DNA from: Nanobdellota archaeon
GTDB taxonomy: Archaea > Nanobdellota > Nanobdellia > Woesearchaeales > SKGA01
Reading direction: 5' to 3'
Assembly (NCBI GenBank): GCA_051819805.1
Contig: JBNJHD010000004.1
Coordinates: forward strand, 1 to 55,760
DNA length: 55,760 nucleotides
The translations under genes and the position numbers were made by a program. A model generated the notes under the pieces. That model made no database searches. It was not told the DNA's origin and saw only the letters and a list, made by a program, of their open reading frames with translations. Shown one piece after another: positions 3,610 to 55,760 of this stretch (positions are counted from its first letter, which is position 1; the number at the start of each line of letters is the position of its first letter).

Positions 3610-6237
3610 CTAATTCTCTTCTTTCAATTTCGCATGAGCAGCTGCAAGACGCGCAATAGGCACACGATAAGGAGAACAACTGACGTAATTCAATCCAGTC
3701 CTATGGCAAAATTCCACGCTTGATGGTTCGCCGCCATGCTCGCCACAGATGCCTACTTTGAGATTCTTATTGACACTACGACCTTTCTTCACACCCATCT
3801 CAACGAGCTGTCCGACACCAGTCTGATCGAGCACCTGGAACGGATCGTACTCGAGTAAGCCTTTATCGATGTATTGCGGCACGAACGTGCCGACATCATC
3901 GCGTGAGAAGCCGAGTGTCATCTGCGTGAGATCGTTCGTTCCGAAGCTGAAAAACTCCGCTGATTCAGCGACCTTATCTGCAGTGAGCGCTGCACGAGGC
4001 ACTTCGATCATCGTTCCGATCTTATAGCTCACAACATCACTTGAAGAGATAGTCTCCTCAGCGATCGTTTTCACGATATCTTTCTGGTTGTCGAATTCTT
4101 TGACATTCCCTATGAGAGGAATCATTACTTCCACTTCAATCGTGTTGCCATCAGCTGCTACTTCCTGTGCTGCTTCAAAGATAGCAACGGACTGCATCTC
4201 GGTGATTTCCGGATAGGTGATACCGAGCCGGCAGCCACGATGTCCGAGCATAGGGTTGACTTCCTCAAGTTTTTCGATGAGTTCATGGATCTTTTTCTCG
4301 CTCACTCCCTGCTCGTGTGCCATCTGCTTGATATCCTCTTTCTCTTTTGGCATGAACTCGTGAAGCGGTGGATCGAGCAGTCGTATCGTGATCGGCTTTC
4401 CCTTCATGATCTCGAAGAGTTGCTTGAAGTCATCTTTCTGGAATGGCTTGATCTTGTCAAGAGCAGCTTTCCGTTTCTCCTTAGTATCTGACAGGATCAT
4501 CTCACGAACCGCTTTGATGCGTTCTCCTTCAAAGAACATGTGTTCAGTCCGGCACAATCCGATACCTTCCGCTCCGAACTCGAGCGCTTTCTTCGCGTCC
4601 CGTGGCGTTTCTGCGTTGGTTCTCACCTTCATGGTCCTGTGCTTGTCAGCCCACTCCATGATCTTCGCGAATGAACCTGAGAGGTCAGGATCGACTGTCG
4701 GCACTTGTCCTTCATAGACTGTTCCTTCAGTTCCATCAAGACTCAAGTAGTCTCCTTCGTTGAATGTCTTTCCATCGAAGGTCACTGTCTTAGCAGACTC
4801 ATCGACTTGCGCGTCACCGCATCCTGAGATGCAGCATTTTCCCATACCTCGAGCGACGACTGCCGCGTGGCTTGTCATGCCGCCTTTCGCTGTAAGTATT
4901 CCTTTTGCAGCATCCATTCCGATGAGGTCTTCAGGGCTCGTATCGTTTCTGACGAGAATGACATTCTCCCCTGCTTCTTTCATCTTCACAGCCGCATCGT
5001 TTGAGAACGCTATCTTTCCCACTGCGGCTCCAGGGCTTGCCGGCAAGCCTTTACCGAGTGTCTTATGCTTGTCTTTAGCCACCTTGTCGAGTTGTTGGTG
5101 AAGGAGCTGATCGAGTGCTTTCGGATCGATGCGCAGCACTGCAGTCTTTTCATCGATAAGTCCTTCATCGACCATGTCTGCTGCAATCTTGACAGCCGCG
5201 TGCGCTGTCCGTTTCCCATTTCTGGTCTGGAGCATGTAAAGCGTTCCTTCTTGGATGGTGAACTCCATGTCCTGCATGTCCTTGTAGTGGCTCTCGAGAT
5301 TCTTGTAGATAGTAACCAATTGGTCATAGACTTCAGGCATCAGATCCTTGAGTGTGGATATCGGTTTTGGTGTACGTATTCCTGCAACGACATCCTCTCC
5401 TTGTGCGTCCATGAGGTATTCGCCGTAAAAGACGTTCTCCCCGGTTGATGGATCGCGTGTGAATGCCACTCCTGTCCCGCTTGTCTTGCCCATGTTTCCG
5501 AAGACCATCGCCTGCACGTTGACCGCTGTTCCTTTGAGTCCTGTGATGTTGTTGAGTCGTCGGTATGCGATCGCACGATCATTATTCCACGAGCCAAAGA
5601 CCGCATCGATCGCTTTGAAGAGTTGCTCGCGCGCATCTTGCGGGAATGGTTCTCCAGCATTCTCTTCGATGATCGTCTTGAATTGCTTGACTGCGTTTTT
5701 CAGATCATCGACATCAAGATCCTTATCGAACTGCACTCCTTTTGTCTCTTTGATCTGTTCAAGGACGTGTTCGAACTTGCTTGCCTTGACTTCGAGAACG
5801 ACATCTCCGAACATCTGCAGTAGTCGTCTGTATGAGTCCCATGCGAATCGTTCATTGCCTGACTTTTCTGCCAGTCCTTTGACGACCTCATCGTTGAGCC
5901 CGAGGTTGAGGATCGTATCCATCATCCCCGGCATCGATTGTGCAGCTCCGCTTCGCACAGAGAGAAGTAGCGGTTCGCTCCTGCTACCGAGACTTGCTTT
6001 CATCTCCCCCTCGAGTGTCTTGAGATGATCGAGAATCTCGCTTCTGGTTTCTTCAGGTAGCGTGTTGTTGTTATTGTTGTATTCTTCACAGGTTTCCGTG
6101 GTGATCGTGAATCCAGACGGTACTGGAACGCCGATGTTTGCCATCTCTGCTAAGTTTGCGCCTTTGCCGCCAAGAAGACTTTTCAATTCCCGTCTTCCTT
6201 CTGTCTTATTGTTGCCGAAAAAATAGACGTGTTTCAT
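3610..6237 (-). CDS. ppdK: Pyruvate, phosphate dikinase
   Basis: LLGGKGANLAEM, SVRSGA, GGMTSHAAVVAR (phospho-His), FSFGTNDLTQ, GICGEHGG. Confidence 0.97.
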   Translation of the reverse strand: MKHVYFFGNNKTEGRRELKSLLGGKGANLAEMANIGVPVPSGFTITTETCEEYNNNNNTLPEETRSEILDHLKTLEGEMKASLGSRSEPLLLSVRSGAAQSMPGMMDTILNLGLNDEVVKGLAEKSGNERFAWDSYRRLLQMFGDVVLEVKASKFEHVLEQIKETKGVQFDKDLDVDDLKNAVKQFKTIIEENAGEPFPQDAREQLFKAIDAVFGSWNNDRAIAYRRLNNITGLKGTAVNVQAMVFGNMGKTSGTGVAFTRDPSTGENVFYGEYLMDAQGEDVVAGIRTPKPISTLKDLMPEVYDQLVTIYKNLESHYKDMQDMEFTIQEGTLYMLQTRNGKRTAHAAVKIAADMVDEGLIDEKTAVLRIDPKALDQLLHQQLDKVAKDKHKTLGKGLPASPGAAVGKIAFSNDAAVKMKEAGENVILVRNDTSPEDLIGMDAAKGILTAKGGMTSHAAVVARGMGKCCISGCGDAQVDESAKTVTFDGKTFNEGDYLSLDGTEGTVYEGQVPTVDPDLSGSFAKIMEWADKHRTMKVRTNAETPRDAKKALEFGAEGIGLCRTEHMFFEGERIKAVREMILSDTKEKRKAALDKIKPFQKDDFKQLFEIMKGKPITIRLLDPPLHEFMPKEKEDIKQMAHEQGVSEKKIHELIEKLEEVNPMLGHRGCRLGITYPEITEMQSVAIFEAAQEVAADGNTIEVEVMIPLIGNVKEFDNQKDIVKTIAEETISSSDVVSYKIGTMIEVPRAALTADKVAESAEFFSFGTNDLTQMTLGFSRDDVGTFVPQYIDKGLLEYDPFQVLDQTGVGQLVEMGVKKGRSVNKNLKVGICGEHGGEPSSVEFCHRTGLNYVSCSPYRVPIARLAAAHAKLKEEN

Positions 6238-11896: not shown

Positions 11897-13036
11897 ATGA
11901 GCCAAGATATGAATACACTCACAGAAACATTGTTCAATAGCGGACTTGCAGGGAGTCCTGGAGAGGCCCGTCGCATGGCAGAAGAAATGCTTTCCACAAG
12001 CAAGAAAGTAGCAGAATCTTCTGAAGAGAACCAACAGACGAATTTTGCGGTAAAGCGATACAAGCGTCCTGAAAAAAAACCAGAAGAGAGAACAGCAGAA
12101 CAACAACCTACAGACAATGAGACCGCAGGATATTCTTCATCACTTGATCCTCAAAAGCGTGAATCATACAATAAAGAGTTCCGTGACAGAGCATTATCAA
12201 ACAGACCTATTGATGTACAGGTCGAATTTGACACTCCTCGCCGAAACGCTGAAGCGACAAAAAATAAATATCTTGAAACACAAAATGCTGAAAAGTATAA
12301 ACAACAATTCCAAGCAAGCGACATTCCCGACACTCATTCCGAATACAAATCCCCTGAAACAAGCAGAGCGCCAAACAGTGAAGATCAATCAATAGATAGG
12401 ATGAACACAACAGCAGAGCAGTTCACAGATCACAGTGCAGCAGAGCAGACTCAAGAGCACAATGCAGCAGAGCAGAAAGTAGCGCACAGTGAAACTGAAG
12501 AACCCACACCTCAATTCTCGAACCAGACATTCTCTACAGGAAGCCTTCTCGATCAGGCAATCCGCAGAGTTGAAAGTTCGAAATCCTCAGACAGCATAAG
12601 TCCTGAAGAGTATTCCAGCAAGAATATAGAAGAAGAGAACACCAGCGATCCAGTGCAACAGCCAGAACACAGCACAACAGACAACCATCCACAGTTTTCC
12701 GAACACACTACAGCAGAACAAACTTCAAATCTTTCTTCAAACGCCTTCTTCCCGGATAAAAACAGTGAAGCAGAAAATAATATACAGGACACGGATTTCA
12801 AGTCCCAATTCACTGCATCCAGTCCTCAGATGACAGCACCGCAGAACCAGCATCACAGTACAACCGACTCTAACGCTCACACCCCTGAAAATCAGGATGC
12901 GAATACTGAATCCTTATCTTCAGATGCTAAATCCCAATCCCGTACAAGTGGTCAGCGAAGAGAGATGACTGAAGAAGAGAAAAAGCAGCAAGAAGAAGTG
13001 GATTTGACAAAACACTTCAACTTCTCGAACAATTGA
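11897..13036 (+). CDS. Hypothetical, largely disordered S/T/Q/E-rich protein with short structured ends
   Basis: 379-aa ORF; AGGTGA RBS; N-terminal LFNSGLAGS..EA..MAE and C-terminal VDLTKHFNF. Confidence 0.8.
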   Translation: MSQDMNTLTETLFNSGLAGSPGEARRMAEEMLSTSKKVAESSEENQQTNFAVKRYKRPEKKPEERTAEQQPTDNETAGYSSSLDPQKRESYNKEFRDRALSNRPIDVQVEFDTPRRNAEATKNKYLETQNAEKYKQQFQASDIPDTHSEYKSPETSRAPNSEDQSIDRMNTTAEQFTDHSAAEQTQEHNAAEQKVAHSETEEPTPQFSNQTFSTGSLLDQAIRRVESSKSSDSISPEEYSSKNIEEENTSDPVQQPEHSTTDNHPQFSEHTTAEQTSNLSSNAFFPDKNSEAENNIQDTDFKSQFTASSPQMTAPQNQHHSTTDSNAHTPENQDANTESLSSDAKSQSRTSGQRREMTEEEKKQQEEVDLTKHFNFSNN

Positions 13037-54630: not shown

Positions 54631-55038
54631 ATGCAACGCTCATTCGAGATATCAACTGACACTCGCGAGAAGCTTTATGATGTGACTGATCATGTCAAGC
54701 GTATCTTGAACGAAAGCAGTGTCAAGGAAGGCAGTGTTCACGTGTACGTGAGAGGTGCTACTGCTGCTATCATGATCCAGGAGAATTGGGATGAGAGCGT
54801 GCAGACCGATGTTATCAACGTTCTGCAGAAAATCGCTCCTCGCGACGTGTGGCTTCATGATCGTCAGGACGGCAACGGTGATTCCCACTTGAAAGCAGGA
54901 CTTATCGGTCCCAGCGAGACGATTCCCATCATCGACAGCGATCTCGGCCTCTCCACATGGCAGAACATTTTCTTGTGCGAATTCGACGGCCCGAGGGAGA
55001 GTAGAGAAATCGTTGTCACGATAACGAATTCTAAATGA
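54631..55038 (+). CDS. yjbQ: YjbQ/UPF0047 family protein
   Basis: TAAI.IQEN, H...DGN.DSHLK, L.LSTWQ.I..CEFDGPR. Confidence 0.9.
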   Translation: MQRSFEISTDTREKLYDVTDHVKRILNESSVKEGSVHVYVRGATAAIMIQENWDESVQTDVINVLQKIAPRDVWLHDRQDGNGDSHLKAGLIGPSETIPIIDSDLGLSTWQNIFLCEFDGPRESREIVVTITNSK

Positions 55039-55111
55039 AGAAAAGCAAAAGCGTAGCTTTTAAAAATAGTCTTGTTCTCCCTGGTGAAGATTCGCAAGAA
55101 TCATTTTTTAG

Positions 55112-55259
55112 TGCCACGGTCGCATACTCGAAAACATTTGTTTTCGGTCGCGCACGTGTATTCATTACAATCATGCCACGGTCGCATACACGACGAAAAA
55201 ATTACGTCTGGTAGGCGACCGGGAACAAAAAGCACACTTTTTAGTGCCACGGTCGCATA
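55112..55259 (+). repeat. Three direct copies of TGCCACGGTCGCATA; the third is the 5' end of tRNA-Ser
   Basis: Exact 15-mers at 55112, 55174 and 55245; spacers of 47 and 56 nt. Confidence 0.9.
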
Positions 55260-55381
55260 ATCCGGTATTGCGCCGGCCTTGAGCGACGGATGAACAATCT
55301 TTGATTGTTATCGAGGTTTGACCTCACGTCCAAAACAGCCGGTTCCTCCGGGAATTCCCGGTTCAAATCCGGGCCGTGGCG
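55246..55381 (+). tRNA. tRNA-Ser(TGA) with 53-nt intron at position 37/38 (55284-55336)
   Basis: Acceptor GCCACGG/CCGTGGC plus G73; anticodon stem CCGGC/GCCGG with CT-TGA-G; long variable arm; T arm CCCGG-TTCAAAT-CCGGG; relaxed BHB; CCA not encoded. Confidence 0.9.
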
Positions 55382-55433
55382 CTTTATCTTATTCTTACGA
55401 GATTGAGGACTTTCTTCGAGTTGGATTTGAACC

Positions 55434-55555
55434 TCCAGTTCATGTTCGGCACTGAAGTGCCGACAGCCTTCGTATGACTCAGGCAATCCGGGCCGCATTA
55501 AGCTTGCCTTAATGCCCAGCATGATTTTGTCTCAAAATTATGTGCGGTGGCGCTT
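55434..55555 (+). repeat. Interrupted copy of the tRNA-Ser 3' end
   Basis: TCCAGTTCA [42 nt] AATCCGGGCC [52 nt] GTGGCGCTT versus tRNA CCCGGTTCAAATCCGGGCCGTGGCGCTT. Confidence 0.75.
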
Positions 55556-55661
55556 CATTTTTCTATGAAGCGGCATTCAGTGAATCTCCGATTCGAACGT
55601 GGTGGCGGCCTTCAAGAAGGAAAGCAATACACTTTGTTTGGAGAAAAAACATCACAATGAC

Positions 55662-55760
55662 TCACAACAGCACGTTCCAGATTATCACTCCGATCGCTAT
55701 GAACAGCCCCAGTATCATCATGATGTCAGCTGCCGTGAGCGCGTAGAACATCAGCACCTG
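55662..55760 (-). CDS. C-terminus of a membrane protein (partial at window edge)
   Basis: QVLMFYALTAADIMMILGLFIAIGVIIWNVLL*; hydrophobic. Confidence 0.5.
   Translation of the reverse strand, partial: QVLMFYALTAADIMMILGLFIAIGVIIWNVLL

Follow-up and report, generated by a model that had tools for sequence, protein, structure and literature searches.

A split copy of the tRNA-Ser(UGA) 3′ end in a Nanobdellota archaeon as a member of a family of small structured cassettes at tRNA gene ends

The last intergenic region (about 55039-55662) of the stretch of DNA analysed here contains a displaced copy, or "echo", of the T-arm and 3′ end of tRNA-Ser(UGA), which is split by structured inserts and is a member of a lineage-wide family of small structured cassettes at tRNA gene ends. 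The whole stretch of 55,760 nucleotides, called the window in the following, is the entire contig C4 of G000, a Nanobdellota archaeon genome of 1.03 Mb and 45 contigs which was scored 97% complete. Its final 99 bases overlap the end of contig C26, by which C4 is continued. Among the sequencing runs searched with sampled words of the window, the best one (X1) reached 0.41 and no run reached half. According to the plan common to the family, a unit begins with a direct copy of a tRNA end and a T-rich trailer, continues with an inverted copy of part of the same tRNA segment and one to three hairpins, the loops of which are conserved while the stems vary freely, and closes with another direct copy. 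Our favoured reading, held tentatively and with somewhat less than even confidence, is that these modules are small, non-autonomous insertion/duplication cassettes which duplicate the local tRNA end.

The displaced copy and the modules around tRNA-Ser(UGA)

The tRNA-Ser(UGA) gene of the window was missed by ARAGORN at default settings and was detected only with the intron option, with which introns were found in most tRNA genes of G000. Its canonical intron shows a textbook BHB motif when drawn by hand (bulges AG|C and AC|A; H helix UUG/CAA; h′ helix GACG/CGUC). The copy follows after a gap of 52 nt, with no 5′ tRNA body ahead of it. As the first-pass annotation had proposed, removal of 55443-55484 and 55495-55546 joins three separate parts into a sequence that matches the T-arm, 3′ end and trailer of tRNA-Ser(UGA) at 26 of 28 positions. 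This colinear match was compared with dinucleotide shuffles of the 278-nt downstream spacer, allowing at most two inserts of at most 60 nt each; none of 300 shuffles reached 26 (mean 19.8, sd 0.96, max 25), and a chance origin of the split copy is excluded. The two-hairpin build described earlier for both inserts was also recovered, with TCGGCAC-TGAA-GTGCCGA at 55446-55463 and GCCT...AGGC at 55466-55484 in insert 1 (42 nt), and GCATTAAG-CTTGC-CTTAATGC at 55495-55515 and CATGATTTTG-TCT-CAAAATTATG at 55520-55542 in insert 2 (52 nt). The same split copy with both inserts is carried by contig C9 of the congener G008 (G008:C9), where the locus is 73% identical over 484 nt; the T-stem copy of the window (TCCAGTTCA) has an A.C mismatch at the position where G008 reads TCCGG. 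New in comparison with the earlier annotation are the inverted arm in front of the copy, the degenerate acceptor-end copy behind it (Table 1) and the genome-wide recurrence of such units. Two ORFs of 93 aa (55241-55522, minus strand) and 68 aa (55540-55746, plus strand) overlap the tRNA and the modules and are most likely spurious. Loci related to a YjbQ-like ORF (54631-55035) are mostly found in bacterial MAGs (63-72%), and the two archaeal matches (Nanobdellota, Candidatus Woesearchaeota) are not syntenic.

Table 1. Features of the tRNA-Ser(UGA) locus, in window positions.
Feature	Position	Strand	Basis
TATA-like element CTTTTAAAAATAG, putative promoter	55057-55069	+	~50 nt before 5′ copy 1; conserved in ortholog G008:C7
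5′ module 1: copy of tRNA positions 1-14 (GCCACGGTCGCATA), hairpin CGAAAACA/TGTTTTCG, imperfect inverted copy GGTCGCGCACGTG	55113-55158	+	RNAfold
5′ module 2: copy of positions 1-14, hairpin, inverted copy GTAGGCGACCGGG, long foldback	55175-55222	+	RNAfold
tRNA-Ser(UGA), functional	55246-55382 (3′ end 55381/2)	+	Rfam RF00005, 42.7 bits, E = 1.4e-7; aragorn -i
Canonical intron of tRNA-Ser(UGA), 53 nt	55284-55336	+	aragorn -i; BHB checked by hand
T-rich trailer/spacer	55383-55422	+	few identical columns in alignment with G008:C9
Inverted T-loop arm GGATTTGAACC (reverse complement of GGTTCAAATCC); 5′ strands of P1 and hpA	55423-55433	+	in 13 of 13 aligned modules
TCCAGTTCA, copy of T-stem 5′ strand and TTCA; 3′ strand of hpA	55434-55442	+	sequence, alignment
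Insert 1, conserved core of R1: hp1 TCGGCAC/GTGCCGA and hp2 GCCT/AGGC with 11-nt loop TCGTATGACTC	55443-55484	+	covariation; R1 73.6 bits
AATCCGGGCC, copy of tRNA positions 58-67; 3′ strand of P1	55485-55494	+	sequence, alignment
Insert 2, acceptor-class two-hairpin cassette (stem with CTTGC loop, CCAG, second hairpin)	55495-55546	+	homologs in G008:C9 and G000:C18
GTGGCGCTT, copy of acceptor 3′ strand, discriminator and trailer start	55547-55555	+	sequence, colinear match
Third cassette: hairpin CGCTTCAT/ATGAAGCG, GCATTCAG, hairpin GAATC/GATTC, AACGTG	55551-55600	+	RNAfold; ~90% conserved in G008:C9
Degenerate third acceptor-end copy GGTGGCGG	55601-55608	+	read by analogy with GGTGGCGC at 55546-55553

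The module that contains insert 1, termed R1 module, folds in RNAfold (55417-55494) as a four-way junction of P1 (UUGGAUU/AAUCCGG), hpA (UGAAC/GUUCA), hp1 and hp2. In an alignment of 13 modules from 12 genomes, which is also the basis of the R1 covariance model, 88.5% of the cells of this structure are paired compared to 74.9% in column shuffles (none of 500 as high), and sliding the pairing partners by one to three columns leaves only 24-49% paired. Compensatory double changes were observed at six of the seven pairs of hp1 and at all four pairs of hp2, with P1 and hpA being nearly invariant. No module copy lacking insert 1 was found, and this insert is more aptly taken as the core that the modules conserve than as an insertion of its own. 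Between G000:C4 and G008:C9 the R1 module is about 92% identical, while the trailer and the canonical intron have diverged beyond alignment.

Such strong covariation with conserved loops, a conservation far above that of the adjoining trailer and intron, and a fixed orientation and distance behind tRNA genes speak for the main rival reading, according to which the modules are cis-acting RNA elements in the leader or trailer of the pre-tRNA, or separate small RNAs. Their inverted arms would pair with the own T-loop, the 5′ strand or the decoy copy and could thereby act on folding, end processing, stability or termination. This appears possible, albeit rather doubtful. Unspliced contigs from two metatranscriptome runs match the modules at 100% identity (55395-55543 and 55558-55708) and leave the neighbouring ORFs uncovered, which suggests an abundant RNA, although RNA libraries can contain DNA and the contigs show neither strand nor ends. 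The wobble cells of the 13-module alignment (13 G.T and 10 A.C) show no strand bias and no excess of G.U over A.C, so that a DNA-level palindrome fits at least as well as an RNA. T-runs after every copy, as well as before 5′ copy 1 (T6) and before the tRNA (T5), could moreover terminate archaeal transcription, and no Rfam family other than tRNA matched 54900-55760 (E up to 10) or four related loci (E up to 1). The two leading accounts, insertion cassettes and cis-acting RNAs, are not mutually exclusive.

Some further candidates were set aside. A C/D-box or H/ACA guide RNA was rejected by eye, the boxes being absent, and a PBS-like primer site was discarded since the acceptor strand lies outside the inverted arm. 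The locus is also no split or permuted tRNA gene, as the gene is contiguous and the arms find their complement inside their own module.

Insert 2 belongs, as a single unit, to another cassette family, whose units are arranged in tandem and bounded by acceptor-end repeats. Homologs of it were found behind tRNA-Ser(GGA) in G000:C18 and in G008:C9, with the CTTGC loop being conserved and the stems differing by compensatory changes. A strain variant in DNA run X3 affects both partners of one base pair of insert 2 (55496 C>T together with 55514 G>A). Among the copies compared, insert 2 was seen only in G000 and G008. It represents a lineage-specific addition, because the 3′ copies of other species (G014, G066, G100, G036, G125 and the tRNA-Cys copy of G009) are contiguous at this point. 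In the third cassette, the first hairpin, which follows GTGGCGC, shares the CGC of the copy before it; related units occur repeatedly in G008:C16, G009:C50 and G009:C25.

The array upstream of the tRNA-Ser(UGA) gene is a mirror image of the 3′ plan. RNAfold yielded -17.9 kcal/mol (z = -2.9) for 5′ module 1 and -23.3 kcal/mol (z = -5.6, none of 200 shuffles as stable) for 5′ module 2. Homologs of module 1 with different, compensating stems are present in G000:C18 (two units), G008:C9, G014 and G009, and the type of module 2 occurs also upstream of tRNA-Ser(GGA) in G008:C16; the genes preceded by homologous 5′ units in C18, G008, G009 and G014 are tRNA-Ser genes. Boxes similar to the TATA-like element (TTTATAAA/TTTAAAAA) lie 40-60 nt ahead of other tRNA genes of G000, and the usual distance between box and tRNA in this genome equals the distance of about 50 nt between the box and 5′ copy 1. 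As this is the only TATA-like box there, the array would be placed either in the leader or as an insertion in the D-loop region, and a position between the sole box and the tRNA, where it is expected to be part of the leader, is a further point for cis-acting RNAs. One contig of DNA run X3 joins 55068 to 55246 and omits the 177-nt 5′ array; its shorter side comprises only 22 letters and it may derive from another organism.

Distribution among tRNA genes and genomes of the order

Copies of tRNA ends were counted for the 29 scorable tRNAs of G000 (of 30 aragorn predictions, one lies at a contig edge), with a downstream reach of 700 nt. The own last 13 nt (at most two mismatches) recurs downstream in ten of them and upstream in none, and the own first 13 nt recurs upstream in five and downstream in none. 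The split copy of the window is not part of the ten, so that the count is a lower bound. In the accessible parts of PMC3293823 and PMC9897764, repeats of the 3′ part downstream and of the 5′ part upstream are described as the classic signature of integration at tRNA genes. The direct repeats found here follow the same rule and would also be expected if the copies were attachment-site scars of larger, integrase-encoding viruses or plasmids, which repeatedly integrated and were lost again and of which the cassettes would be remnants of the element ends. The sublocation classes of integration in tRNA genes described by Williams in 2002 reportedly give this repeat signature as well. In addition, the left half of the T-arm copy is imperfect (TCCAG) as in an attR, and G000 encodes two tyrosine recombinases. 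Nevertheless, we consider such an origin improbable. Matches to PF00589 are confined to C35 and C9, with none on C4 or C26, and no recombinase-bearing element is situated between the repeats, which enclose only 40-170 nt at all loci seen (and 52 nt between tRNA and copy in the window). The repeats consist of local tRNA sequence even where one and the same cassette is found at different tRNAs, and the short interiors, unlike decaying remnants, are found again at different tRNAs and in at least 20 genera, where they show compensatory changes. The possibility raised in the earlier annotation, that the segment is the known end of an integrated element with ordinary terminator hairpins, is not borne out; the recombinases are encoded on other contigs and the hairpins covary across 12 genomes. 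Contig C35 (6.8 kb, 35% G+C compared to a genome average of about 42%) carries one of these recombinases at 1306-1785 along with several ORFs and may be a plasmid or virus. It was also considered as an att-bearing element and rejected, as it shows no tRNA-like att beyond a 13-nt match.

A scan with a covariance model, as it had been suggested in the first-pass annotation, recovered the modules both within and beyond G000. The R1 model has ten matches in the 1.03 Mb of G000, nine of which lie 18-203 nt 3′ of a tRNA gene on the same strand (Ser-UGA, Cys, Trp with three, Val-GAC, Phe, Gln and Ser-GCU). The remaining match lies at the start of C30 and is a duplicate of the Gln match at the end of C16; elsewhere in the genome there are none. 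With a cut-off of E up to 1e-3 under stricter filters, R1 is present in 21 of 151 sampled genomes of the order, corresponding to 20 of 143 genera, a patchiness that speaks against a cis-acting RNA. Ten distant matches from nine other genomes were inspected, eight of which immediately follow a tRNA (Val, Ser five times, Ala, Trp) and terminate in the 3′ end of that very tRNA, often together with its trailer; for the other two, the sequence piece examined contains no tRNA. Identical tandem units occur in G000 (Trp), G066 (three units of 102 nt), G100, G023 and G043. The sequences between the copies form families that several tRNAs have in common, the copies being derived in each case from the local tRNA end; this bears out the earlier claim that the cassettes are specific to tRNA-end sequence. 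A search with the pattern TTTGAACNTNCRGTTCA and one mismatch was discarded (tally 59 of 201 genomes, including the unpublished G148 and G199), as the reversed control also matched.

Behind tRNA-Thr(CGU) in G000:C26 (about 290-345) lies a cassette in which the loop motif of hp2 is inverted (GAGTCATACGA). This suggests that the interior between the inverted arms can flip, and such swapped or inverted interiors are a further difficulty for a cis-acting RNA.

In G000, 30 tRNA genes were detected by aragorn and 25 by Rfam. About 46 tRNAs are expected for an archaeon according to the accessible part of PMC9897764. Not seen were tRNA-Ser(CGA), tRNA-His and several Arg, Leu, Pro and Gly isoacceptors; these may be multi-intron genes or lie in unassembled arrays. 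Scaffold gaps of 100 N (C2, C13, C18, C25) and contig ends (C9/C10, C31, C44) coincide with module arrays, and hence the arrays may contribute to broken assemblies and undercounted tRNA sets.

Inserts, introns and the predicted T-loop intron Z

The first-pass annotation had viewed the inserts as structured, intron-like cassettes that enter tRNA sequence. Their recurrence at the ends of several tRNAs upholds the first half of this idea; the intron nature of inserts 1 and 2 is not supported. With an intact tRNA-Ser(UGA) upstream, neither of them interrupts a working gene as an intron, and a BHB junction, as displayed by the canonical intron and by the insertion Z described below, could not be drawn by hand for either insert. 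An automatic BHB scan gave 16 matches in the window region as opposed to 19.3 in shuffles and missed both true introns. Three RNA-library contigs cover the inserts and all of them are unspliced (few records, no tRNA-specific library).

The only tRNA-Ser(GGA) gene found in G008 contains a 103-nt insertion, Z, at 59/60 between TTCAAA and TCCGGG. The T-stem serves as outer helix (h), followed by a perfect UUCA/UGAA central H helix and 3-nt bulges; aragorn sees no gene with Z and one gene after its removal in silico. From this geometry Z is predicted to be a genuine T-loop BHB intron. The sequence of Z also begins at the same point of the tRNA-Ser(UGA) gene of G008, at a contig end, and is present at the same point of the downstream echo copy in G009:C50. 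A truncated Z (AGTCCAAAGCTGGCAAAGCG...) was noticed outside any T-loop, after the last tRNA-Trp echo copy in G000:C25 (about 12560-12680). By eye only, tRNA-Val(UAC) in G000:C33 (about 5859-5990, minus strand) has an apparent D-loop intron of about 49 nt; its acceptor 5′ strand GGGCCCA sits upstream of aragorn's call.

With a lineage that splices T-loop introns (Z in G008) and probably D-loop introns, with Z at the same point of the downstream copy in G009 and with only 30 (aragorn) or 25 (Rfam) tRNAs for the expected 46 or so, it could be imagined that the copy downstream functions as an alternative 3′ exon. Either inserts 1 and 2 or the proximal 3′ end with its trailer would then be removed as non-canonical introns, and the product would be a tRNA-Ser with multiple introns or with alternative splicing. 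This is highly improbable, as the gene upstream is intact, no 5′ body precedes the copy, its T-stem contains the A.C mismatch, no BHB can be drawn by hand for either insert, copies decay in other species and, as a weak argument, the RNA contigs are unspliced.

A broader idea, which we regard as unlikely, is that the modules constitute a class of mobile cassettes, hitherto undescribed and defined by their structure, which target tRNA loops in DPANN-type archaea and supply the material from which non-canonical tRNA introns arise. A cassette would enter with a harmless duplication of the exon end; a later deletion between short direct repeats (CCGGTTCA in gene and module) could then fuse it into the T-loop as an intron, and the reverse event would remove a T-loop intron. 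If true, the window with its intact gene plus echo and G008 with Z inside the gene would be two states of one cycle, and the arrival of archaeal tRNA introns, the route of which is called still open in the available portion of 10.64898/2026.10.13.758758, would become directly testable.

Proposed insertion with duplication and relation to known systems

Under the favoured reading as insertion/duplication cassettes, the points of entry of the modules would be the T-loop, the beginning of the 3′ strand of the T-stem, the acceptor 3′ strand and the D-loop, and each entry would duplicate the part of the tRNA that lies between this point and the end of the gene. Such a local duplication would leave the gene intact and turn the displaced copy into a landing pad for further cassettes; in the window, the displaced copy would later have received insert 2 and the third cassette. 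Units could be amplified in tandem by unequal recombination, and selection may preserve the hairpins because a folded single strand, of DNA or RNA, is needed either for propagation or for tolerated processing. The chemistry of insertion, the enzyme responsible and the relevance of RNA are those parts of this reading that we infer.

Evidence for it comes from the comparison of species, in which the anatomy of the units, their family membership, covariation and tRNA linkage are observed, as is their presence or absence together with local direct repeats. At the tRNA-Phe locus, the trailers of G000 and G008 are identical (27 of 27) and hp1 differs by two compensatory double changes. G000 contains here an extra cassette of about 49 nt (...GGGTGACCAGAAGAA...TTCTTCGCTG) with a 12-nt local direct repeat, which is absent at the orthologous site of G008. 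This extra cassette, termed cassette b, has CCACCC(A/G)GCCCA as flanking repeat at tRNA-Phe and CCACCCGCGGCG, the own 12 nt, at tRNA-Ser(GCU), and these local repeats together with the absence in G008 are the signature of an insertion with target duplication. Dispersed copies (ten R1 matches) and duplication of local sequence (cassette b) were both found, as in MITE/IS-type elements. Behind tRNA-Phe, a (G)GATTTGAAC...AATCC module with differing interiors is present in all six congeners inspected. The acceptor part of its copy has decayed in G001, G002 and G003, whereas the foldback persists, which fits the copy being a by-product of insertion. The number of 5′ copies also varies between congeners (one or two). 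In sum, the copies are local, the same cassette occurs at different tRNAs, units turn over between congeners or are repeated identically in tandem, R1 is strictly tRNA-linked in G000 and the hp2 loop motif is inverted in the Thr-CGU cassette, all of which argues for cassettes.

Several observations count against this. Among the families searched in G000, no cognate enzyme was found, with no matches each to Y1 transposase (PF01797), TnpB (PF07282), reverse transcriptase (PF00078) and Cas1 (PF01867). The trailers between tRNA and inverted arm differ among tRNAs, and this lack of conservation makes the left boundary of the putative mobile unit unclear. Repeat length varies with the class from about 13 to 22 nt, unlike the result of one fixed staggered cut, and a clean empty site of the R1 module was not found. 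The conservation of modules above that of trailer and intron and the module behind tRNA-Phe in six of six congeners fit a host function and, like the RNA contig coverage pointing to an abundant RNA, favour cis-acting RNAs instead.

Modules of this kind are not described in the accessible parts of the literature searched, which deal with larger integrated elements or introns (PMC9897764, PMC3293823, 10.64898/2026.10.13.758758). Incomplete copies of tRNAs are commonly written off as scars of integrated viruses. Those found here belong to a unit that is conserved, structured and repeatedly amplified, and which accompanies many tRNA genes across an archaeal order with genomes of roughly 1 Mb, where idle DNA is rare. 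Should the modules be mobile, they would be a new kind of tRNA-targeting element that spares its target through duplication of the end of the gene; should they be RNAs, they would add a new layer of pre-tRNA architecture. In either case they adjoin a real T-loop intron and apparent D-loop introns, and they may shed light on the acquisition of insertions and introns by archaeal tRNA genes.

Accretion arrays at tRNA genes are known as CIMEs, and tycheposon islands reportedly form accretion arrays with partial tRNA copies. These systems and other att copies resemble the modules in having repeats of the 3′ part downstream and of the 5′ part upstream, an intact gene and arrays of multiple copies. 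In contrast to att-flanked elements, the units of the modules measure only about 50-170 nt, encode nothing and have no integrase nearby; they include an integral inverted copy and covarying hairpins, and the same interior is found at many tRNAs with local repeats.

Intron transposition in tRNA genes of the Thermoproteales was reportedly described by Fujishima et al. in 2010. Like the cassettes, mobile non-canonical BHB introns are short structured inserts at the D-loop, T-loop and acceptor, with related sequences in different tRNAs, and the likeness extends to Z, which in close relatives is both the predicted T-loop intron and an occupant of the echo copy. Unlike such introns, inserts 1 and 2 reside in a non-functional duplicate and show no BHB when checked by hand, and the duplication of the exon end is not predicted by intron transposition.

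MITEs and REP/BIME clusters consist of small, noncoding, palindromic units in many copies. They share with the modules an alternating orientation, tandem amplification and stems that are kept by compensatory change. The modules differ in being found strictly at tRNA gene ends, with arms that are the target's own sequence, and no RAYT/Y1 is encoded in G000. Casposons, finally, are said to integrate at tRNA 3′ ends with target duplications of 14-15 bp (Beguin et al., in 2016). A long target duplication of the tRNA 3′ end and tandem arrays sharing the repeat are common to both; the modules, however, lack terminal inverted repeats of element sequence, their host G000 has no Cas1 and their units are about 100 times smaller.
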